Of a stretch of DNA of 53,837 nucleotides, positions 10,801 through 28,902 are shown piece by piece. The stretch comes from an uncultured Lachnospiraceae bacterium (lineage in GTDB: Bacteria; Bacillota; Clostridia; Christensenellales; UBA1242). The notes beneath the pieces are model-generated. The model made no database searches. It was not told the origin of the DNA and saw only the letters and a program-made list of their open reading frames with translations. Location: positions 1 through 53,837 of the forward strand of contig CAZIPJ010000002.1 in the NCBI GenBank assembly GCA_964541365.1, written 5' to 3'. Position numbers and translations under genes: made by a program. Each line of letters opens with the position of its first letter. Position 1 is the stretch's first letter.

Positions 10801-13072
10801 TTTCAAATTTGTCGGATATCAAAAATTCTGTTGAGTCGCCCTGTGCAATCTCTGGCGTTCCGAGCGAAACATCATTTAAAAAGACTTCATAACTTGAAAT
10901 GTTTTCGGCATTCTTGATTGATATGTAATAATTGCTTCCATTGTCTGCAAACTTGACATCTTCAACTTCAAGCTTCTCGCAAATGTAGAAGACTTCTTCC
11001 AGTGCATTTTGTGATGCTATGTTTTTGTCCGCATCCAAACTAAGTGAATAGACTTTTGCGTAATAGTATCCAACTTTTGTGACATCAATACTTGTTTCTT
11101 CAACTACTCCACCAAGGTCAACTAAGCCTGTTGTGTCAATGTTGATTTGTTCAGCGTCTTTATTTTGCTCATACACAGTCTTGTCAATTTCAAAAAGTTC
11201 AACCTTATAACTTCCAGCACCAGCTACGCTTGCCCAAGAAAACTCTTTCTTTGTTGAGTTTCCAGCATTTGCTGTCTGTGGCACGTCCAAAACTTCAATT
11301 CTCTTTGTTTTTGAAGAGCCAATTGAAAGTGTGTCATCTTCCGTCTTCGCAACAATTCTCAAATCGAAAACGCTTTTGCCGCCTATCTGATAAGGCTCAA
11401 CCAAATCTTCCAATTTACCTACAAGAGTGATTGCAACAGTTTCTTCTCCAATGCTGACATTGTATTTTTCTGACTCAACATCCACAAACTCTGACTCACC
11501 ACGGGTTTGCAAAGTATAACTCGTTGCAAATTCAGTTTTTGAGAAAGTCAAAACAGATTTCCCATCCACATAAGAGTGAACAACATTTCCACTGATTGTA
11601 TCAACCTTTGTTGCAACGATACTGTTTGATGCGTTTGAGTTAATAACCAAAACATTTTGTCCAGAAATTGTGTTTTGTGCTGAAACAGGAATCTGCTTCA
11701 AAGAAATTGTGTGACTGCCACTCTGCGTTAAAGCGATTTCAAAGTTGAAGTTTTCATTGCCAGCTTCAAAACCTTCAACAGATGTTTTCACGCCAGCAAC
11801 ATCAACACTAAGCAAAACATCAACAGGATTTGCTTGTGAACTCAAATTCATTCCAAAACTTGTTCTGTCAACAGTGTTTCCGCCAGCTCCTTCAATGTGA
11901 GCGGTTGGCAATTTATAAATCTTTCCAAGTTCAAGTTCTTCACTTTGGAAGAAGAATCCTGTTTCTGTCTTTGGCAGAGCCACAACTTTCACATTGTAAA
12001 GTCCAGCATCCACATCTTCAAAAGTCTCAAAGATTTGTTCTGCATCATTTGAAACAAAAATGCTTGCCTTGTTTGCTGAATTTGAAGCATCAACAAAGTC
12101 GAAACGATAACTTGTTGCATTTGCGTCTGTAACAATTTTCACCCTTCCGCCATTGGTTGAGTCATAAACATACTGTGCATTTGCAGTTGCAAGCTTGTTG
12201 ATTGTCACAGTTTCGCTCTCTGTTGCCAAAAGCATACCTTTTTGGTCATAAGCAACAACGCTTACTGTATGTGCCCCTGCTGATGATGCACTCAAACGCT
12301 CAAAAAGTGAGATTGAGTTTACTGTCTGTCTTTGTGCAAGTTCGACGCCGTCAAATTTAATTGCATAATTTGAGTTGTCTGCTCCATCCCAAGACAACTC
12401 CCCTTTCTGTTCATCCCAAGCAAAGTTGGTTGGTGCTTGCATATAGCCATAGTGAAGTGTCACTGGCTGTGATGGATTGCTGTCAGCAAAATAGCCTGTT
12501 CCAAGTGCAGTGACTGTCAGCTTGTAAACACCGCTTCTTGAAAGAGCATAGCTTGTTGACGCAACTGTTTCATTGATTTGCACTGTGTCAGTCACAACAG
12601 ATGGGTCAGTTGCAGAGTAAACTGTGCAGAACCCTTCCACTTTGTATTCATTGGCAGAGACAACTTGTCCGTTAAAATATGAGTAGACTGGGTTCCAACT
12701 GAATACCCCGTCAGATGAGAGTGGGCTGTCGGAGAATGTTGGACTTGTGAATTGAGTTCTGACAACAATCTGCATTGAAGCAAGAACATTTTTCTTGTAA
12801 GTTGCGTGAACATATGATTTTCCAGATTTGACAGCAGTGAGAGTCTTGCCGTCAAAATCAAATAAGTCTGGGTTTTCAAGTTTGTATGTAATGCTTTTCT
12901 TTTCAACTTTCTTGACTGACAAATATTCGTCAAGGCTTATGGAATCATTGATAGAGATAACAATCTCCTTTTTGTCGAAGGTTGCTTCGGGTTTTTTAAA
13001 ATCGCACGCCATTAAAACCGTGCCAAGTGTCAACATAAAAATTGACATAATGAAAATCTTCAACTTCTTCAT
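1838..13072 (-). CDS. Giant (3744 aa) cell-surface lipoprotein with many Fn3/Ig-like repeats and a C-terminal GLUG-type beta-helix module; putative adhesin
   Basis: Uninterrupted 11.2-kb ORF. Lipobox signal MKKLKIFIMSIFMLTLGTVLMAC. SD GGAGAGGAG 8 nt upstream of the ATG. Recurrent Fn3-like module starts: FSWASVAGAGSYKVELFE, LSWDSVSGATGYVFRMYE, LTWNSVEGRTEG, LSWDGADNSNYAIKF, LTWTNIDENAQKYYVYF. C-terminus has FTGEIRGNGYTI followed by G-[LI]-A/G-x-x-N repeats (SGLAITNSGKIENV, GGIAFTNYASIENC, AGIVVTNAGYSKLAGC). Confidence 0.85.
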   Translation of the reverse strand: MKKLKIFIMSIFMLTLGTVLMACDFKKPEATFDKKEIVISINDSISLDEYLSVKKVEKKSITYKLENPDLFDFDGKTLTAVKSGKSYVHATYKKNVLASMQIVVRTQFTSPTFSDSPLSSDGVFSWNPVYSYFNGQVVSANEYKVEGFCTVYSATDPSVVTDTVQINETVASTSYALSRSGVYKLTVTALGTGYFADSNPSQPVTLHYGYMQAPTNFAWDEQKGELSWDGADNSNYAIKFDGVELAQRQTVNSISLFERLSASSAGAHTVSVVAYDQKGMLLATESETVTINKLATANAQYVYDSTNGGRVKIVTDANATSYRFDFVDASNSANKASIFVSNDAEQIFETFEDVDAGLYNVKVVALPKTETGFFFQSEELELGKIYKLPTAHIEGAGGNTVDRTSFGMNLSSQANPVDVLLSVDVAGVKTSVEGFEAGNENFNFEIALTQSGSHTISLKQIPVSAQNTISGQNVLVINSNASNSIVATKVDTISGNVVHSYVDGKSVLTFSKTEFATSYTLQTRGESEFVDVESEKYNVSIGEETVAITLVGKLEDLVEPYQIGGKSVFDLRIVAKTEDDTLSIGSSKTKRIEVLDVPQTANAGNSTKKEFSWASVAGAGSYKVELFEIDKTVYEQNKDAEQINIDTTGLVDLGGVVEETSIDVTKVGYYYAKVYSLSLDADKNIASQNALEEVFYICEKLEVEDVKFADNGSNYYISIKNAENISSYEVFLNDVSLGTPEIAQGDSTEFLISDKFETAGQEYTISVVAHSDNEQLYNESDAFEFVVERLPKVAREDIQIGELTLQVDTTDLSANSISQELSISAVAGAKGVRIWDGNGTTAGSENETVAKLSISNQSNVEYNFRYYGSAQKDSVFAMESGKVYLSGEISTYRFTRLQTPTELSYYDGALRFEHTATTSTAYYVLTIVCVGLNGKEENITVKLARNTTACYQDIEENIGSDSEFVSINANVVTIDFENIIEQIQSIGKIANVYNQSDKVGFAVYAEQDRLEGGIVTISSNFATTSLDNSKVVCVVEKMPETILEIDLETSDTDYILKWSAAASNASYESETRYQVLLDGVEVGDEISALTKSFARTDFDVSTYYEFSVVVTNPYYVQSDSSNIIRIYKLGAISQLKLFETAQLGYEISSIEKDFVDYVKVVTASSFDNNKTGKVDITENGRYTLKVVGKKAVESEGNKKTYYVDSEESSWTVSQMSALKPADESVTYQNNTISWNEFASSQNLHCLRYILMFVDENGNTARYKTASTSENLTTNKELYNALNALSGEVTIYVSAYLETFPIVDDLTDKPTYSVAAGGTVYYSKAVELPLQAGMTENNHYLYSGTATVNKFATPNIKNVEFVADDLANAQLPDVKIVFEGNYGTSRNFDIFLNGEFYRTENITLADGKYSFVLSPVDYNSKVDIGETLTVGVCALSDTDILSSIASVEIVRVKQVEEIEFVEDSQLGFTHKLKIKLPAETQTSGGVVVKVTYQETGDALKDEYVLVPVNEVLTEIEYDLTETLSKTESGKRILAKGGKVKLSAFVASVSSANKYSLACSVWTESDEYQILATVEEVEKTSGGFVIDADTNSTLTTYIVECNNTTFEVTYENGKFYFEFPHGGQWANGTYTLTVYAKEDGKLRAIATEIDFVLNKLTPLSDVMIQRDADDLSAITLSWDSVSGATGYVFRMYEAGDETRANLIYEYVEERTNGSSTIVNSCTLTDMFGEGFVKLLEGGKVDIFTLMSDKNFVFDVFVRGSEGVNDSDTFTFNATIKGNSLEVQNFEVNAFGNIVFNCTAGETYLYRFTTSDGTVLQNWTKLYAESDSVKIDTSKLTAQGGTYYNMEVTVVGNNIADEISTKQDGLVVDSITFTTRGTDRTFVVGTDIVEVGYIESEGNTDLSFELVIGTYTRIYVGLSEDALLNEQVVSIIPLHIAQGSTNEQEICTYKLPTIIDKLKELGQTISANNQDIDLYFWACKDIDESDLQNCYTISHSSSCSFTYENKIDFIGIRKLGKELAEDSKFIEDYANSFALFENNDISENKTTFGIYVKISPLEAGNEDISPVVMFVDRQTLLSGDYFLDEDCFEINLTKLFEESEFADLYGKFSFEFSVLSVKALDGEKQFVLSDWIGSDNGKQFVFNKLRDIDRLDLMSGSLTWTNIDENAQKYYVYFIESVNDNLQIGDTYVYDVANTNRYNASEFIGLEKGYYLAVRSVNEDAYVLPSQLQFVMSEGKPVKIEKNEIKAPLKIENGKVFIEFAEGEDETLKLSSGDGRDFVDYIRNCGESTEAVNTLLNTTFKVPFTFKLSDLVYGRIFVRLRFTSLANSVEGRSQTFDVDARYLISSLFALDDGYDYKAKLGILENRGGGATLRAFSALMEDGSFGVGNYKTLFDDRFESLQTGEYKLDYCLLGNSSSLTSAWYSFKNNGENSIYVNNEPTVQAIKTSAVDGYNSANSYKVILKKSEIYSKQDGVLTSEIAKNYILKIYNDANEYYAFSISKISTAYSLTLFNGKDGVSVSVYETDEFGKETVDGDYLMFYINQNEGNSILGRYGMEIKKGAYKMQIFATGNDYSFSSKSALFNLTLYGFKDDFSLNNGEFSWTPQKNVKTTVIYKKHSSVSETIAEPIETTSNTARYSLDEAGYGLYDYVDFLVVGDVYANNIFVDSEVYHIENVYKLMTPSVSNVNGLIQIDDTNNKEFEGLDGCYSDLDLYNYKVYNDVSSESIQFIDSNNAEKPIYYEVGVTDLSQNAPEYNYKYSEYSASKFYIASLGTTATFEIENNNDPTRYYLKNVKYPNTVEGDSDKMLGVALRSNFEEFDAKMLDTASGLSIRDGVLTWNSVEGRTEGNLTISNREKIVYKVTVVQYDLSYVDDGESENEYANKLEYYTLETKFDFARIPEEKLNKSAKFMKATVQAFAMNVSNVIPAFPTYLNLVEGGYAYGNVKFAGTDSFVLMGNGETIKSIERCQSIDEDSLAVVDGGLTWTVTFDSATSATENFGETYKFSVVDENFKEIEGDFTFEQGMTDRQVVVKFSESKGQLSAKTQALTVYMTKVSTQNSVIKSFGKEIEITKLKAIDSNDFVISSNERDSNIEILDFTNYFESNASNVIELSIYQNDDKTDTPTKFVFNATKSKLYILEQEDEAITADNEYVGKFVVGQNSRTIMNFNVKNLSLENCLYSDVSDDLILQRSSWGDGRITWNSQAQRFEWSYNGFNALQQKHQVTKIEQIIETSKETVLYQDRDLEIGTIVGDEQLKLAEGTEIVVENIYENSSEISYEGNTYFISNSDYRDAIKAVETTTLSAGTLFKIVDAGSGTESIIQTEDGALYTIAKESIVKPVYIVEATYGEGASAIVRTYTTTKNYFTPTIIGKVAIKVKIKLGEANIQSQALEYNNGQTVNYNLFAAGQGTAQSPYLISTETQFKNILHRLSKDESLKRFTENGNIKNEEEKYYFSLQRDIVLSSELQGILFDGVFTGEIRGNGYTIEYVNSTVSKLSNGDVTVSEGNVVSSTDADSTVISYGAALFETLSSTAVVKDLNLKVTLSAGSSTPYVTRNSLISGLAITNSGKIENVNLTGLRTNFVGIGSNRTRIMMIYSGIASINIGRDAVITNCSANTNMEFNDLNTAQLIFFGGIAFTNYASIENCTAGDATSAKTISVVGLSESDVVQVAGIVVTNAGYSKLAGCKNYANITVSAQYDNDNFVVYIAGVTALANGTVQNNQNNGKITATNILDKNLHKGNIYPNDEY

Positions 13073-24363: not shown

Positions 24364-25503
24364 CTAATCTTTCTTCTTTTTAATGTATCCGCTGACTTCA
24401 TTGTTATAGTCATCGAAAAGTTTGATTTCGCTTGGTGTCACGCTTGGTGGCATAACAGCCAAAACTCTGTCAAAATCAGCGTTTGTGATTTTAACGATTG
24501 AATCAGTGGCAATTGCCTGCAAAAGTGGTTCATCTTTTGCTCTGTCACAAAGTTCTTCAATGTCAGCACCACTGTAATTTTCTGTCTGCTCAACAATCTT
24601 GTCAATATCAAAATCGTCAGCAACAGGAACATTTTTCATATTTTTGTTAAGCATAAACTTTCTTGCAGGAGCATCAGGAAGTGGCAAATAAATCTTCTGT
24701 GAAAATCTTCCAGAACGCATTGCTGCACTGTCAATGTCCCAAGGTCTGTTTGTTGCACCCAAAAGCAAAAGGTTTTGGTTTCTTCCAGCAAAACCATCAA
24801 TCTGTTGCAAAAACTCGTTTACTCTCTTGTTGTTGTGAGTGTCATCCCCACGCTTACCCAAAAGGTTGTCCATTTCGTCGATGAAGATGATTGCTCTGTC
24901 TTGCTTGTTTGCTTCTGCAAAAAGGGAGTTGATATTCTTCTCACTGTCACCAACCCACTTGCTGACAATGTCAGAACCTTTGACTGCATAAAACTTTGCA
25001 CCAACTTCATTTGCAATAGCTTTTGCAATCATCGTCTTTCCTGTCCCTGGTGGTCCATACAAAAGCACGCCACCACCGCTCTTTTTGCCATACATCTTGT
25101 ATTTTTCTGGGTATTTGACAGGATTTATCATTCTGATTGTAATCGCTTTCTTGACTTCATCAAGTCCAGCAACATCAGAAAACTTTATGTCAGGCACTTT
25201 TGCCGCCTGCCATTTCTTGATATCGTCATCTTCACCTTCTGACTTGCTGTCATCTTTCTTTTCCACTTTCATTGGTTTCTTTCCAAGATTTTCAGACAAA
25301 TCAACAAGATTTCTTGCTCTTTCCATTCTCGCTTCTTTAAGCTTGCCTTGGCTTTGCTTTGCCATTTGCATCATCGTCTCACCAGCAAGCAAAAAGTTTC
25401 TTTTTGCAAGAGTCAAATTTCCTTTTTCCTTTGCTTCTTTTCCCTTTCTCATATAAAGGTCAAAAGTGTCGGACAAAACAGTCATATTTGGTTGTTCTTT
25501 CAC
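24364..25503 (-). CDS. Vps4/katanin/spastin-clade (meiotic clade) AAA+ ATPase with MIT-like N-terminal three-helix domain
   Basis: 379 aa. GTG start at 25503 with GGGAGA 6-7 nt upstream.
- Walker A: LLYGPPGTGKT.
- Pore-loop region: SDIVSKWVGDSEKNINSLF (compare yeast Vps4 SDLVSKWMGESEKLVKQLF).
- Walker B: IIFIDEMD.
- Sensor and Arg-finger region: LLGATNRPWDIDSAAMRSGRFSQKIYLPLPD (compare Vps4 [29 protein letters not shown]).
- N-terminal 75 aa: helical, MIT-like (YMRKGKEAKEKGNLTLAKRNFLLAGETMMQMAKQSQGKLKEARMERARNLVDLSENL), followed by an acidic/Lys linker. Confidence 0.85.
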   Translation of the reverse strand: MKEQPNMTVLSDTFDLYMRKGKEAKEKGNLTLAKRNFLLAGETMMQMAKQSQGKLKEARMERARNLVDLSENLGKKPMKVEKKDDSKSEGEDDDIKKWQAAKVPDIKFSDVAGLDEVKKAITIRMINPVKYPEKYKMYGKKSGGGVLLYGPPGTGKTMIAKAIANEVGAKFYAVKGSDIVSKWVGDSEKNINSLFAEANKQDRAIIFIDEMDNLLGKRGDDTHNNKRVNEFLQQIDGFAGRNQNLLLLGATNRPWDIDSAAMRSGRFSQKIYLPLPDAPARKFMLNKNMKNVPVADDFDIDKIVEQTENYSGADIEELCDRAKDEPLLQAIATDSIVKITNADFDRVLAVMPPSVTPSEIKLFDDYNNEVSGYIKKKKD

Positions 25504-25525: not shown

Positions 25526-25988
25526 TTAGTACATTGTTTTATCTTTGATTTTCATATAATCTTCAAAGAGTTTCAAACACTCTTTGTGGTCAACTTGAAT
25601 AATTTTATCTTTCATCTTTTCGGTCGAGATTGAAAGGTTTTTATAGAATATTTCATCCCTAAAACCAATCATATCATTCTCTGCAATCGTGCAACCGTAA
25701 TAAATCTTATTGATGTTTGCCCACAAGATTGCACCCAAACACATTGGACAAGGTTCGCCAGTTGTGTAAATGTCTGCACCACTCAAATCAAATGTGTTCA
25801 AATTCTTGCAAGCATTTCTGATTGCGTCAATTTCTCCGTGACAGGTTGGGTCATTATTTACCACAACGTGGTTGTGCCCCCCCGATTACTTTTCCATCCT
25901 TCACGACAACTGCACCAAAAGGTCCACCATCATTATGGCTGATGCCCTGTCTCGCTTCTTGGATGGCGATTTTCATAAACTTATTCAT
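25526..25988 (-). pseudogene. CDA-fold guanine deaminase-like (GuaD/TadA superfamily) gene interrupted by a frameshift in a G7 tract
   Basis: Two track ORFs (25854-26126, 25526-25864). From ATG 25988: MNKFMKIAIQEARQGISHNDGGPFGAVVVKDGKVIGG, then a frame change at plus-strand C7 (about 25870-25876), then ...NNDPTCHGEIDAIRNA...GEPCPMCLGAILWA. These are the CDA zinc motifs (C/H)AE and PCxxC. Removing one G restores KVIGGHNHVVVNNDPTCHGE. Confidence 0.75.
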
Positions 25989-26010: not shown

Positions 26011-26607
26011 TTACTCAGAAGCAGAATCAATTTTCTTTCTGAGTTCTTCCATTTCCTTGTCAATGCTTTCACTTGAAAGACTGTCAAGACTTGCTTGTTC
26101 TTCAATAAACTTTGCAAATTCTGCATCTGTCATCTCTGCGCCCTTCTTGTCTTTTCCAGCATTGTAGAATGTCTCTTGGCTCATTTCCATAAAGTTGTCC
26201 ATTTGGTCAGTTTGAGTTTCAACTGCTGTCATTGCAGCTTCAAACTGAGCTTGGATTTTTGCAAATTCTTTTGCATCTGCAAGTTTTGTCATTTCCTTGC
26301 TGATGTCGCTCATTCCCCTAAGGAAATCAGATGTCATCATTGTCACATCTTTCATCTGTGCAGTGATTTCAAAGTTGAGAAGCATTTCTTGTGCTCTTCT
26401 TTGTTGTTGAACAGTCATTTTATAACCGCTGAGTGCAAGTTTGTATTGTGCATCCAAAGACTTTTCTTTTGCTCTCTTTGCAGCATCAATAAACACCTGC
26501 TTTTGGTCTTCAAGCTTGTTGATTTGCTTGTTCATTGTGTTGATAGTTCTTTTAACCAACATCTTCTTTTCAATTTCTTTTTGCTGTTTTGTTTTAAACA
26601 ATCCCAT
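26011..26607 (-). CDS. Snf7/ESCRT-III-like protein (CHMP2/Vps2-like pattern) with acidic C-terminal MIM-like helix
   Basis: 198 aa, all-helical by composition. Starts MGLFKTKQQKEIEKK. Basic N-half and acidic C-half. The segment QMKDVTMMTSDFLRGMSDISKEMTKLADAKEFAKIQAQFEAAMTAVETQTDQMDNFMEMS parallels CHMP2A LKSNNSMAQAMKGVTKAMGTMNRQLKLPQIQKIMMEFERQSEIMDMKEEMMNDAIDDA. The C-terminus SIDKEMEELRKKIDSASE parallels CHMP2A DLEERLKNLRRD. SD GGAGG lies within the upstream gene's end, and the ATG is 1 nt after the upstream stop. Confidence 0.7.
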   Translation of the reverse strand: MGLFKTKQQKEIEKKMLVKRTINTMNKQINKLEDQKQVFIDAAKRAKEKSLDAQYKLALSGYKMTVQQQRRAQEMLLNFEITAQMKDVTMMTSDFLRGMSDISKEMTKLADAKEFAKIQAQFEAAMTAVETQTDQMDNFMEMSQETFYNAGKDKKGAEMTDAEFAKFIEEQASLDSLSSESIDKEMEELRKKIDSASE

Positions 26608-26608
26608 T

Positions 26609-27223
26609 TTATTCCTCCATCATCATTTTTTTCTTTTTCTTCTCAGCAGTTTCTCTCTGTCCTTCAACATAGAGTTCCTGTTCATCAGCCAATTGATTTT
26701 CTTTCTCAAAAATCGTCAACAAATCTTCTTCGTTCTTGCCCATTCCATAAATCGTTTGATTAACATCGTAAGCAGATTGAACTTCTGAAAACACTTCGTC
26801 TGCACTTGTCAAGACATCTTCGCTTGCAATCCTTGTTTCAAGCGCCTTGTTTAAAAACTTTGCAAGTCCAAGCTGGTCTTTAAGAAGCTCTGAAAGTGGC
26901 ACTTTGGTTTGTGTTTTGAAGAATGTGTTGCTGTCATACGCATCTTTGAGCTTTGTCATAAGTCTGATGTTGTAGAGCAGGTACATTCCCCTTTCCATAC
27001 AAGTCTGTTTTTCTTCGTTAAGATGTGAAATTTTCTTCGCATAGAAAAGTTGCAAATCTTTGTTCTTTTCCTTTTTGCCTTTTTCCATAAGAGCATCAAT
27101 CTCTTTGACCTTCTGGAAAACTTCCGCTTCCACCGTGCGTTCTTGTCTTTCAAGTTCGCAAATGGAGTTGACTAAGTCTTCACGGTTAAGTTTTTTAAAT
27201 TTGTTTCTTCTAAATAACCACAT
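26609..27223 (-). CDS. Second ESCRT-III-superfamily-like coiled-coil protein (Snf7/PspA-like), tentative
   Basis: Start taken at ATG 27223 (MWLFRRNKFKKLNREDL) with SD GAAGGAGC 7 nt upstream; the track ORF extension has no SD. 204 aa. Basic N-terminal helices (EIDALMEKGKKEKNKDLQLFYAKKISHLNEEKQTCMERGMYLLYNIRLMTKLKDA), acidic C-half, Lys-rich tail AEKKKKKMMMEE. Confidence 0.5.
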   Translation of the reverse strand: MWLFRRNKFKKLNREDLVNSICELERQERTVEAEVFQKVKEIDALMEKGKKEKNKDLQLFYAKKISHLNEEKQTCMERGMYLLYNIRLMTKLKDAYDSNTFFKTQTKVPLSELLKDQLGLAKFLNKALETRIASEDVLTSADEVFSEVQSAYDVNQTIYGMGKNEEDLLTIFEKENQLADEQELYVEGQRETAEKKKKKMMMEE

Positions 27224-27236
27224 TTTCTTGCTCCTT

Positions 27237-27599
27237 CTAATAGTTCTCGCCAGCGACGATTGCATTGATGCCTTCCAAGAAATCTTCATAGACCTTCTTT
27301 TGTCCATCGTCGGCAAAGGTGAATGCATTTTGACATTCTTGCATCGACATAACATCTTTGTAAGCGACAGGGTCTTTCAGCAATTGGTCTTCCGTTTTGA
27401 TGCGAAGTTTGTACAACATCAATCCCCAATAAGCATCAGCACATTTGCTGTCATATTGCAACGCCAACAGGAAATTGATTTTAGCTTGTTCAAACATCCC
27501 TTCGCTTAAATTCAAATAGCCAAGACGAAGTTCTTTCAAGACATTTGTCTTCTCGCTTTCTCCAAGCGTATCTGATGCTTGATAAAACCTTCCTATCAT
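27237..27599 (-). CDS. Small TPR-like protein
   Basis: 120 aa. LRLGYLNLSEGMFEQAKINFLLALQYDSKCADAYWGLMLYKLRIKTEDQL resembles TPR pairs. It shares the A-x-Y/L-W/F-x-x-L-L-x-x-Y/H-K motif with the 1279-aa protein. Confidence 0.5.
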   Translation of the reverse strand: MIGRFYQASDTLGESEKTNVLKELRLGYLNLSEGMFEQAKINFLLALQYDSKCADAYWGLMLYKLRIKTEDQLLKDPVAYKDVMSMQECQNAFTFADDGQKKVYEDFLEGINAIVAGENY

Positions 27600-28012
27600 A
27601 CTTGTTCTTCCTTCTTTCTTTGAACAATGAAGCCTTCAACTTCTTCCAGCATTCTCATACAAGTTTCTTGTGTGTTGTCTTTTGCAACAATAATTTTCAA
27701 GTCGTCAAGCTTGTTTGAAAGTTTTGCATCCACCGCCAAAACCTTTTGATTTGTTGTTGGATTAAAGAATCTGATGTCATCTTTCGCTTGAACAAGTCTT
27801 CTGCAAAGAGCATCGTTTCCATCTGCATAAACCAAAATGCTTTCAACATTTGCAACCATATTTTCAATGCTCTTTTTGTTTTTAAGCACACCACGACTTC
27901 CGATGTCTTCATTTCCGCTTTCTTTTTTGGTTTTCTTGCCGTACTCTCTCCAAATGAAGAATCCTGCAAGTCCAACAACCGCCAACATAATGATAATATA
28001 AACAGCAATCAT
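27596..28012 (-). CDS. Single-pass (N-terminal TM) helical protein, function unknown
   Basis: 138 aa. MIAVYIIIMLAVVGLAGFFIW TM segment followed by a charged helical region. 4-nt ATGA overlap with the next gene. SD GGAGAAAAA upstream. Confidence 0.5.
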   Translation of the reverse strand: MIAVYIIIMLAVVGLAGFFIWREYGKKTKKESGNEDIGSRGVLKNKKSIENMVANVESILVYADGNDALCRRLVQAKDDIRFFNPTTNQKVLAVDAKLSNKLDDLKIIVAKDNTQETCMRMLEEVEGFIVQRKKEEQV

Positions 28013-28024
28013 ATTTTTTTCTCC

Positions 28025-28858
28025 TTAGATTTTCTTTCCACAATTCTGGCAAAACTTTGCACTAGCACTGTTTTCAGTATTGCAATCTGGGCAGACCTTA
28101 ACTGTTCCAATTCTTCTTCCGCAGTTGTAACAGAATTTTGCACTTGCAGAAAGTTCTTCTCCGCAGTCTGGGCAAATCACAACATCCGCAGGTTTCTTGT
28201 TTCCGCTTTTGAAATTTCCAGAAAGTTTGGCATAATCAGCTTCGTCAATGATAATATTTGCAATATTGAAAGAATAAACAGCAATTCCGTATTCTCCCAT
28301 AAGTTTTTGATTAAGTTTCGTCAAAACTTTGGATGAGATTTCTCTTTTCTTGACTGTGACTTGGTTGAACAAAATTTCTTGCGAACTTACATATTCAACA
28401 ACCACGTTCTCCACAACAGAAACAACTGTAGTTTGAAGTCTGTCTTGAAGGTCATCGGTTGTCAAATCATTGTCAGCACCAATCAAATACAAATAGCATT
28501 TTCTTGGGTCGCCAATCTGCACATCATAATCTCCGCTCATCCCCACTTTGTAATTTTCTTGCAAATTTGCATCATACATAAGGAATTTCTGAGCCGTCCC
28601 CCACAAAAGATTAAGTTTTGCAGTCTTGGACATAAAAAGAACTTCCAAATTGCTGTCAAACTCATTTTTCACATCCACAAACTTGCTGACAAGATATTTG
28701 CCAGAAGAAAGTGTTTGAAGCATTTGCCCGTCCTTAATCAAAATTGCATTGTGAGTTTCAGGGACCAGAAGTGTCAGTTTTGCAGTCAGACTTTCAATCT
28801 TGTGTCTGCTGAAAAGGCTCTTGTTGTCACCAGAAAATGTAATAATGTTTTGTTCCAT
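28025..28858 (-). CDS. SPFH (band-7)-like YdjI-type protein fused to two C-terminal zinc ribbons
   Basis: The body (...LLVPETHNAILIKDGQMLQTLSSGKYLV...LLWGTAQKFLMYDANLQENYKVGMSGDYDVQIGDPRKCYLYL...LMGEYGIAVYSFNIANIIID) matches the YdjI/virion-core-like SPFH pattern. C-terminus is CPDCGEELSASAKFCYNCG and CPDCNTENSASAKFCQNCG. Start is ATG 28858 (or GTG 28861); the SD is weak. Confidence 0.75.
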   Translation of the reverse strand: MEQNIITFSGDNKSLFSRHKIESLTAKLTLLVPETHNAILIKDGQMLQTLSSGKYLVSKFVDVKNEFDSNLEVLFMSKTAKLNLLWGTAQKFLMYDANLQENYKVGMSGDYDVQIGDPRKCYLYLIGADNDLTTDDLQDRLQTTVVSVVENVVVEYVSSQEILFNQVTVKKREISSKVLTKLNQKLMGEYGIAVYSFNIANIIIDEADYAKLSGNFKSGNKKPADVVICPDCGEELSASAKFCYNCGRRIGTVKVCPDCNTENSASAKFCQNCGKKI

Positions 28859-28902
28859 CACAGCTTCATCTTCTTTCAGAAGATACTCTCCTTCATAATG
28901 AT

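Follow-up and report, generated by a model that had tools for sequence, protein, structure and literature searches.

A CHMP2-like Snf7-family protein with a MIM1-like C-terminal helix, encoded with an MIT-AAA ATPase in Clostridia

A gene on a contig from an uncultured Lachnospiraceae bacterium (assembly GCA_964541365.1, contig CAZIPJ010000002.1, positions 1 to 53,837; this whole stretch of 53,837 nucleotides is called the window) encodes a protein of 198 amino acids (aa), hereafter the target. On the evidence of profile comparisons we assign it with high confidence to the Snf7 family of ESCRT-III proteins, nearer to the CHMP1-3/Vps2 type than to CHMP4/Snf7 or to PspA. The target ends in an amphipathic helix with the hydrophobic spacing of an MIT-interacting motif type 1 (MIM1), and its operon also encodes an AAA ATPase with an MIT-like N-terminal domain (MIT-AAA ATPase), on which that helix plausibly docks. 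The features of the target are as follows.

26011..26607 (including the stop codon), minus strand: target gene, assigned as a Snf7-family (CHMP2A-like) ESCRT-III protein, 198 aa; open reading frame, Shine-Dalgarno sequence, homology and helices modeled by AlphaFold2 (AF2)
26593..26607, minus strand: MGLFK N-terminal motif, a candidate membrane-insertion element (alpha0-like) preceding the basic alpha1; conservation, with function inferred
26104..26133, minus strand: alpha5 motif, residues 159-168, family consensus Phi-x-D-x-E-I-D-x-L-I (Phi, hydrophobic); conservation
26014..26073, minus strand: C-terminal helix alpha6, residues 179-198, MIM1-like, S-E-S-I182-D-K-E-M186-E-E-L189-R-K-K-I193; conservation, motif statistics and a predicted local distance difference test score (pLDDT) of 90-94

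Relationship to the Snf7 family

The open reading frame is a real, conserved gene, since it has 449 close homologues (at least 80% identity, in gut Clostridia metagenome-assembled genomes labelled Christensenella, Caccovivens or Clostridia) and belongs to a family of 350 clusters at 50% identity in an exhaustive profile search (E <= 1e-3). A scan with the single target protein returned relatives from close Clostridia only. Translation of the minus strand gives exactly the 198 aa and stop codon proposed in an earlier note on this DNA, and the peptides quoted there (MGLFKTKQQKE, a hairpin segment, a Met/Thr/Gln-rich middle and the terminal SIDKEMEELRKKIDSASE) were all found. The ATG lies one base past the stop codon of an upstream 204-aa gene, with a GGAGGA Shine-Dalgarno sequence 7 nt 5' of it, and two consecutive stop codons (TAATAA) close the gene. 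At the N-terminus, F4 and K5 are invariant in the close homologues, and MxxFKSK is the consensus over diverse relatives. Members of the family are all annotated as hypothetical protein, with nothing more specific, and the family is therefore invisible to standard annotation.

As a single sequence, the target had no match in Pfam, NCBIfam or the PDB, and a shallow alignment of its close homologues gave no PDB match and a poor AF2 model (pLDDT 51). The ESCRT-III signal is therefore detectable only with a diverse alignment, here one of 97 full-length relatives at 23-53% identity (A2), on which the family profile is based. Searched against the PDB, this profile aligned query residues 8-150 with CHMP2A (7zcg_B; E = 2.4e-6). 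ESCRT-III proteins (CHMP2A, CHMP1B, CHMP3, Vps24 and CdvB) accounted for 10 of the 19 PDB sequences at E < 10, all of them colinear from the N-terminus, and neither Snf7/CHMP4 chains nor PspA/Vipp1 chains were found at that threshold. When the 97 members were scanned singly against Pfam, 17 matched Snf7 (PF03357; best E = 1.4e-9), no other family recurred, and none matched PspA_IM30 (PF04012). Pairwise comparison of the family profile by hhalign gave a probability of 92.5% for CHMP2A (E = 4.7e-7 over 140 columns), compared to 4.3% for CHMP4B and 0.8% for E. coli PspA; residues 5-143 of the CHMP2A reference used for this comparison match the alignment from the PDB profile search.

These matches bear out the earlier note, which had placed the protein in the Snf7/ESCRT-III superfamily, called it CHMP2-like and aligned its middle region by hand with CHMP2A helices 3-4, an alignment with which the profiles agree. 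That note had named the lack of a significant Snf7/ESCRT-III-superfamily profile match as grounds for refutation, and the placement withstands this check. The profile scores likewise support an A-type assignment (Vps2/Vps24/Did2; CHMP1-3) rather than a B-type one (Snf7/Vps20; CHMP4-7). A PspA-type identity was considered and rejected, given the empty PspA_IM30 scan, the missing PspA/Vipp1 chains and the low hhalign probability.

Modeled with the A2 alignment, the target reached a pLDDT of 82.5, with helices at residues 7-48, 52-109, 113-150, 161-176 and 179-197. These predicted helices would correspond to the alpha1-alpha2/3 hairpin, alpha4, a linker (151-160), alpha5 and alpha6. In a Foldseek search of the model against the PDB the eight best matches were all ESCRT-III proteins, with CdvB, Snf7 and Vipp1 ranked lower; because the E-values were 0.035 or higher, this ranking is only supportive. 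The charge layout is also ESCRT-III-like, with a basic N-terminal core (12 K/R versus 6 D/E in alpha1) and an acidic C-terminal half (7 K/R versus 19 D/E from alpha4 through alpha6).

The C-terminal helix and the partner ATPase

MIM1 motifs, with the consensus (D/E)xxLxxRLxxL(K/R), lie at the extreme C-terminus of their proteins and bind the H2/H3 groove of the MIT domain. A C-terminal amphipathic helix with MIM1 hydrophobic spacing, placed at the extreme C-terminus after a linker, is found family-wide; the helix that the earlier note had recognized in one sequence is conserved throughout the 97-member alignment. Hydrophobic residues occupy positions 182, 186, 189 and 193 in 90, 91, 95 and 78% of members, respectively, positions 179, 181 and 183 are mostly acidic (D179 in 66% and position 181 in 62% of the family), and positions 190-192 are often basic. 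In the target, E180 is an acidic residue ahead of the motif, and I-DKE-M-EE-L-R matches the MIM1 hydrophobic spacing Phi-x3-Phi-x2-Phi-(K/R) together with the basic residue that follows. The Leu/Arg register had been thought to differ from strict MIM1; the hydrophobic register is in fact the same, and only the arginine is replaced (Glu185). Alignment position 185 is K/R in 45% of the family, and the full consensus is present in distant members, as DEDIERRLQEIRGR in locus L108 and IDKQIEQRIGQVR in locus L109. A strict MIM1-type regular expression matched 30 of 100 tails, whereas shuffled tails gave 3.9 matches on average and never more than 11. Conservation of the alpha5 motif exceeds that of alpha6 (D161 in 77 and E163 in 72 of the 97 members; position 164 hydrophobic in 99% and positions 167-168 in 96-99%).

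The candidate partner of this helix is encoded downstream of the target.

24364..25503, minus strand: MIT-AAA ATPase, 379 aa, Vps4/CdvC-like architecture; AAA, AAA_lid_3 and CdvC model
25279..25482, minus strand: MIT-like three-helix N-domain of the ATPase, residues ~8-75; profile against the PDB

The N-terminal ~75 residues of the ATPase are kept in all orthologues. Against the PDB, a profile of this N-domain (26 sequences) matched the chitin-synthase MIT domain at E = 5.5e-4, spanning all three helices, followed by the MIT domains of CdvC (2w2u; E = 1.5e-3), S. solfataricus Vps4 (E = 0.024), VPS4B (E = 0.17-1.2) and calpain-7 (E = 1.6). MIT domains make up 10 of the 26 PDB matches of this profile, and single ATPase sequences did not match Pfam MIT. 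The AAA module scored 219.6 bits over 268 residues against the NCBIfam CDC48 model and 206.8 bits over 353 residues against the CdvC model, which covers ATPase residues 16-368. Pore loop 1, read from the sequence, is SKWVGDSEK, with a Vps4-type Lys-Trp. The C-terminal half of Vps4_C (model positions 28-59) was recognized in all but one of 11 orthologues, with E-values down to 3.7e-7, and the window ATPase scored 18.7 bits, under the 21.3-bit cutoff. As far as these comparisons reach, the ATPase has the Vps4/CdvC architecture; we do not class it among the Vps4 orthologues, because no beta-domain was found in it and its AAA cassette scores higher against Cdc48/p97 D2. Of the partner foreseen in the earlier note, the MIT-like N-domain stands, and the AAA module is corrected to one closer to Cdc48/p97 D2 than to Vps4. 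Architecture varies among the orthologues: two tandem AAA cassettes (two Walker A motifs) occur at L041:8577-10682, L064:7618-9711, L081:7587-9686, L084:7567-9606, L085:7566-9686 and L095:5318-7405, and the ATPases of L040, L061, L066, L067, L076 and L080 carry an extra ~100-140 aa.

By synteny, motif conservation and analogy, MIM-MIT docking of the target tail on the ATPase N-domain is plausible. In a marine clade the tail has changed from RKK to EKLL and MIT helix 3 from basic to QWEES, a co-change that amounts to a single event and hints, anecdotally, at co-variation. Two to three family paralogues per locus, some with a MIM-like tail and some without, are encoded at L110:7001-8286 and at L111:7001-9446 and 11316-11897; such sets of tailed and tailless paralogues may echo those of archaeal and eukaryotic ESCRT-III.

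Operon partners and wider contexts

The remaining members of the window operon, listed from its 5' end, are as follows.

28025..28861, minus strand: SPFH (Band_7_1) protein, two zinc ribbons at its C-terminus, position ahead of the module conserved; Band_7_1 E = 4.5e-16, Zn_Ribbon_1 and DZR
27596..28012, minus strand: 138-aa protein with one N-terminal transmembrane (TM) helix (residues 2-20), a conserved operon member; TM prediction and synteny
27237..27599, minus strand: small 120-aa TPR-like protein, close clade only; domain scan and synteny
26609..27223, minus strand: E3up, a 204-aa coiled-coil protein, possibly a divergent ESCRT-III paralogue; co-occurrence and hhalign
25526..25988, minus strand: cytidine/guanine-type deaminase, frameshifted, between target and ATPase; domain scan and comparison with L002
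20515..24354, minus strand: giant protein, 1279 aa, with an N-terminal zinc ribbon, TPRs, a degenerate TIR-like domain, at least 3 TM helices and extracellular Gly-rich repeats; TPR, TIR profile and TM prediction

All genes of the operon lie on the minus strand, with intergenic gaps of -4 to 22 nt, in a neighborhood of housekeeping genes (ABC transporter, metK). The order SPFH protein, TM protein, 204-aa gene, target, ATPase and giant protein is kept in 42 of 42 species-level genomes and in 64 metagenome loci, down to 34% identity and with marine samples included, and linkage of an ESCRT-III-like gene to an MIT-AAA gene extends to the distant loci L108-L112. In most other genomes the ATPase begins -4 to ~50 nt after the target stop codon. 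The ATPase had been described as lying two genes downstream, which is true of the window and not of the family, where direct adjacency is the normal state; the wider spacing is a local accident, because the deaminase was found in the window genome and L002 only and is missing from 40 of the 42 genome loci. Compared with L002, where the gene is intact, the window deaminase has lost 2 bp in a G-run, so that it is a pseudogene or else the assembly is wrong at this homopolymer. It is a lineage-specific insertion, not part of the system. A different 299-aa gene stands at the target/ATPase junction at L015:8595-9545 and also in L016, L020, L047 and L048, and some loci have one or two TPR/TIR genes between target and ATPase; the junction seems to tolerate or attract insertions.

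E3up is present wherever the target gene is. Its alignment to the target family by hhalign (E = 2.9e-4, probability 41%) is colinear over 164 columns and makes a second ESCRT-III-like subunit or paralogue possible. E3up had no Pfam or PDB match, scored under 3% by hhalign against CHMP4B, CHMP6 and CHMP2A, and returned only close relatives in a homologue search. Its conserved motifs (LFYAKKI, an invariant IYG and LLAMFE) and N-terminal MWPFK tip match no known family. Because E3up has no conserved or MIM-like tail, the target alone carries a candidate ATPase-recruiting motif, as is the case with Vps2/CHMP2.

In 8 of 10 orthologues of the giant protein, Pfam TIR_2 was matched at aa ~155-295 (e.g., L041, L061, L064, L065, L084, L096 and L098). 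The TIR profile of these orthologues also matched residues 174-267 of the window giant (E = 4.5e-13); since Leu there replaces the conserved WxxxE glutamate, the domain is probably catalytically dead. Its TM helices, three or more, are predicted at 834-917. The extracellular parts of the giants differ (Gly-rich repeats, BspA leucine-rich repeats [LRRs] or Listeria-Bacteroides repeats), and the predicted topology of these proteins is Toll-like-receptor-like.

In distant relatives, the genes next to the ESCRT-III-like and MIT-AAA pair encode TIR_2/FHA, PP2C phosphatase, Ser/Thr kinase, BrxL, Macro and proteasome-like products (L108:8981-13163, L109:10585-13860 and L110:9775-14690), which suggests a conflict or immunity context for these loci. 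An ESCRT-III-like N-terminus is fused either to an FtsK/SpoIIIE module or to a RuvB-like AAA plus NERD nuclease module in P0176, P0178, P0179, P0186, P0192, P0195 and P0257. Fusion genes of this kind (L111:7001-8863 and L112:7001-9403) lie just 5' of a second, complete module of SPFH, coiled-coil, ESCRT-III-like, MIT-AAA and giant genes, and L112 additionally encodes a trypsin-like protease. An apparent ESCRT-III-FtsH fusion, cut after alpha5 (L099:952-1776), was set aside as a probable chimeric assembly on a contig with 1.3x coverage. Membership of a known defense system was rejected, as PADLOC gave no match for the module except generic AAA similarity; a phage or plasmid origin was likewise rejected, as searches of known phages and plasmids returned no copies of the system.

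Proposed mechanism and relation to known systems

We propose, as the best explanation and a reasonably probable one, that the target is a bacterial CHMP2/Vps2-like (A-type) Snf7-family ESCRT-III subunit whose MIM1-like tail recruits the MIT-AAA ATPase for polymer remodelling. Polymerization, membrane binding, MIM-MIT docking and the biological role of the target are steps that we infer, and they would fit together in the following way. With E3up as a probable co-subunit, the target may use its MGLFK tip and basic alpha1 to polymerize on the cytoplasmic side of the membrane, and the SPFH-zinc-ribbon protein and the single-pass TM protein would probably organize this polymer, as YdjI does PspA in Bacillus. 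The MIT-like domain could then bind the exposed C-terminal helix of polymerized subunits in a Type-1-like manner, in the H2/H3 groove. Threading of the subunit by the ATPase through its KW pore loop would remodel or disassemble the polymer and so drive the repair or remodelling of the membrane. A likely sensor or regulator would be the giant TPR/TIR-like transmembrane protein.

Several observations weigh against this explanation. The MIM1 arginine position is occupied by Glu185 in the target, and the high pLDDT of alpha6, obtained in a monomer model, may reflect intramolecular packing. The MIT similarity of the N-domain is moderate (best E = 5.5e-4), with a designed helical repeat protein scoring slightly higher. 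The best PDB matches of the AAA cassette are p97/Cdc48 D2, with no Vps4 chain in the top 60, and a Vps4 beta-domain was not found, as there is no insert between the lid helices and only the C-terminal half of Vps4_C was matched. Taken alone, the Foldseek E-values are insignificant. The alpha6 pLDDT, together with the stronger conservation of alpha5, the persistence of a shortened alpha6-like helix in the FtsK-/RuvB-type ATPase fusions and the L110 paralogue that lies beside the ATPase without a tail, would suit an ESCRT-III homologue in which alpha6 is mainly structural, serving autoinhibition or inter-subunit contacts in the way that alpha5/alpha6 of closed ESCRT-III pack on the hairpin, and in which the ATPase engages the polymer otherwise, through the alpha5 DxEIxxLI motif, E3up or the TPR proteins. 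We regard such an arrangement as unlikely. The fusion loci encode a separate MIT-AAA ATPase as well, so that the helix kept in the fusions is no argument against MIT docking; the motif occupies the very C-terminus, behind a flexible acidic linker, exactly where MIM1 stands; and eukaryotic tails combine autoinhibitory and MIT-binding roles.

The presence of TIR_2 in 8 of 10 giant-protein orthologues raises the question of a TIR-linked immune or conflict module, in which the ESCRT-III-like polymer would serve as effector or scaffold (e.g., for membrane disruption or for recruitment of nucleases and translocases) and the Cdc48-D2-like ATPase an activating unfoldase, not a Vps4-type recycler. The AAA module nearest to Cdc48 D2, the TIR_2/FHA, PP2C, Ser/Thr kinase, BrxL and Macro genes adjoining the distant modules, and the FtsK/SpoIIIE or RuvB+NERD fusions near a trypsin-like protease are all in keeping with this. 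Even so, it seems to us distinctly improbable: beyond generic AAA similarity PADLOC systems were unmatched, phage and plasmid copies were not found, the window locus sits among housekeeping genes (ABC transporter, metK) and its TIR-like domain is without the conserved Glu. An immune role would, besides, be compatible with MIM-MIT docking. A generic coiled coil, whose similarity to ESCRT-III would arise from helical, charged composition, might explain why the single target sequence has no Pfam or PDB match, why composition bias contributes a large term to the CHMP2A profile match, why designed helical repeats were matched too, and why Foldseek E-values are no lower than 0.035. It is very improbable nonetheless, as 10 of the 19 PDB profile matches are ESCRT-III proteins colinear from the N-terminus, Pfam Snf7 was matched independently in 17 members down to E = 1.4e-9, helix boundaries agree with alpha1-alpha6, and hhalign separated CHMP2A from CHMP4B and PspA (92.5% versus 4.3% and 0.8%) although all three are helical and charged.

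The target resembles CHMP2A/Vps2 in its colinear profile similarity over alpha1-alpha4, its length of ~200 aa, its basic N-terminal and acidic C-terminal halves, its short hydrophobic N-terminal tip, its acidic/Leu alpha5 motif and its extreme C-terminal helix of the form L-x3-L-x2-L-(K/R) after acidic residues. It differs in being bacterial (Clostridia and other metagenomic lineages), in its identity of only ~17% to CHMP2A and in the Glu at the MIM1 arginine; it has no ESCRT-I/II partners and is linked instead to SPFH, TM and TIR/TPR proteins, with an ATPase that is not a Vps4 orthologue. The archaeal CdvB/CdvC and the Asgard ESCRT-IIIA/IIIB-Vps4 operons similarly couple one or two ESCRT-III-like genes to an MIT-AAA ATPase; the CdvC model spans the whole bacterial ATPase, and the CdvC MIT is among the best N-domain matches. 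Unlike the archaeal Cdv systems, the bacterial loci showed no CdvA and no wHTH/ESCRT-II-like gene, and their AAA module gives its better score with Cdc48 D2. In crenarchaeal CdvB the motif is a proline-rich MIM2, whereas the target tail is helical and MIM1-like. A SPFH-zinc-ribbon protein is also part of some archaeal ESCRT systems (PMC11188069).

Among bacteria, Ravi et al. 2024 (PMC11237479), the one survey to have noticed such ATPases, described an MIT+Vps4-like ATPase followed by a TPR+TM protein in five phyla and stated that snf7 is displaced there. The operons described here, from Clostridia and other lineages, share that ATPase design and the large TPR and multi-TM protein encoded after it; they differ in the divergent Snf7-type gene immediately upstream (unseen by single-sequence Pfam searches), in the SPFH gene and in the TIR domains that their TPR-TM proteins also bear. 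In B. subtilis, the SPFH-zinc-ribbon protein YdjI links PspA to the membrane (PMC8581546), and the pspA-ydjGHI operon likewise combines an ESCRT-III-superfamily protein with an SPFH protein of Band_7_1 type that ends in zinc ribbons (the YdjI architecture) and small membrane proteins (PMC8581546; PMC11237479). In contrast to PspA/Vipp1 systems, the target is of Snf7 type, not PspA type, and an MIT-AAA ATPase is present, as it is not in PspA systems. Reviews assign Snf7-type ESCRT-III with Vps4 to archaea and eukaryotes and only PspA/Vipp1, without a Vps4-like partner, to bacteria (PMC7619361, PMC10936438); one of them, from 2025, describes bacteria as apparently lacking a Vps4-like ATPase (PMC7619361), and Makarova et al. 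2024 reported ESCRT components in archaea and not in bacteria. Our literature search turned up no account of bacteria in which a Snf7-type gene encoding a MIM-like tail is coupled to an MIT-AAA ATPase, nor of the SPFH/TIR context of such a gene. The target operon, which pairs a Snf7-type subunit with a Vps4-style ATPase, is a combination that reviews call missing from bacteria and is of interest to the ESCRT field.

We speculate, and hold it as a tentative possibility, that many bacteria carry a complete, unrecognized ESCRT-III/Vps4-like machine wired to Toll-like-receptor-shaped membrane proteins. If this were true, the core of the machine would comprise a SPFH organizer, two ESCRT-III-like subunits and an MIT-AAA ATPase recruited by a MIM1-type tail, and its membrane proteins would combine extracellular LRRs or repeats, TM helices and intracellular TIR domains and TPRs; in some lineages, the machine would be tied to effectors of FtsK or RuvB-NERD type that carry a fused ESCRT-III domain. 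It would then be a membrane-damage-sensing or immune system that couples ESCRT-III membrane repair or remodelling to TIR signaling, and the MIM-MIT recruitment logic would not be an archaeal/eukaryotic invention. A conserved bacterial operon in which a CHMP2-like gene, with its MIM1-like tail, adjoins an MIT-AAA gene would provide a simple bacterial model of ATPase-driven ESCRT-III remodelling and would bear on when MIM-MIT recruitment arose or how it spread, and its SPFH and TIR partners would connect ESCRT-III function with bacterial membrane-stress or immune sensing.

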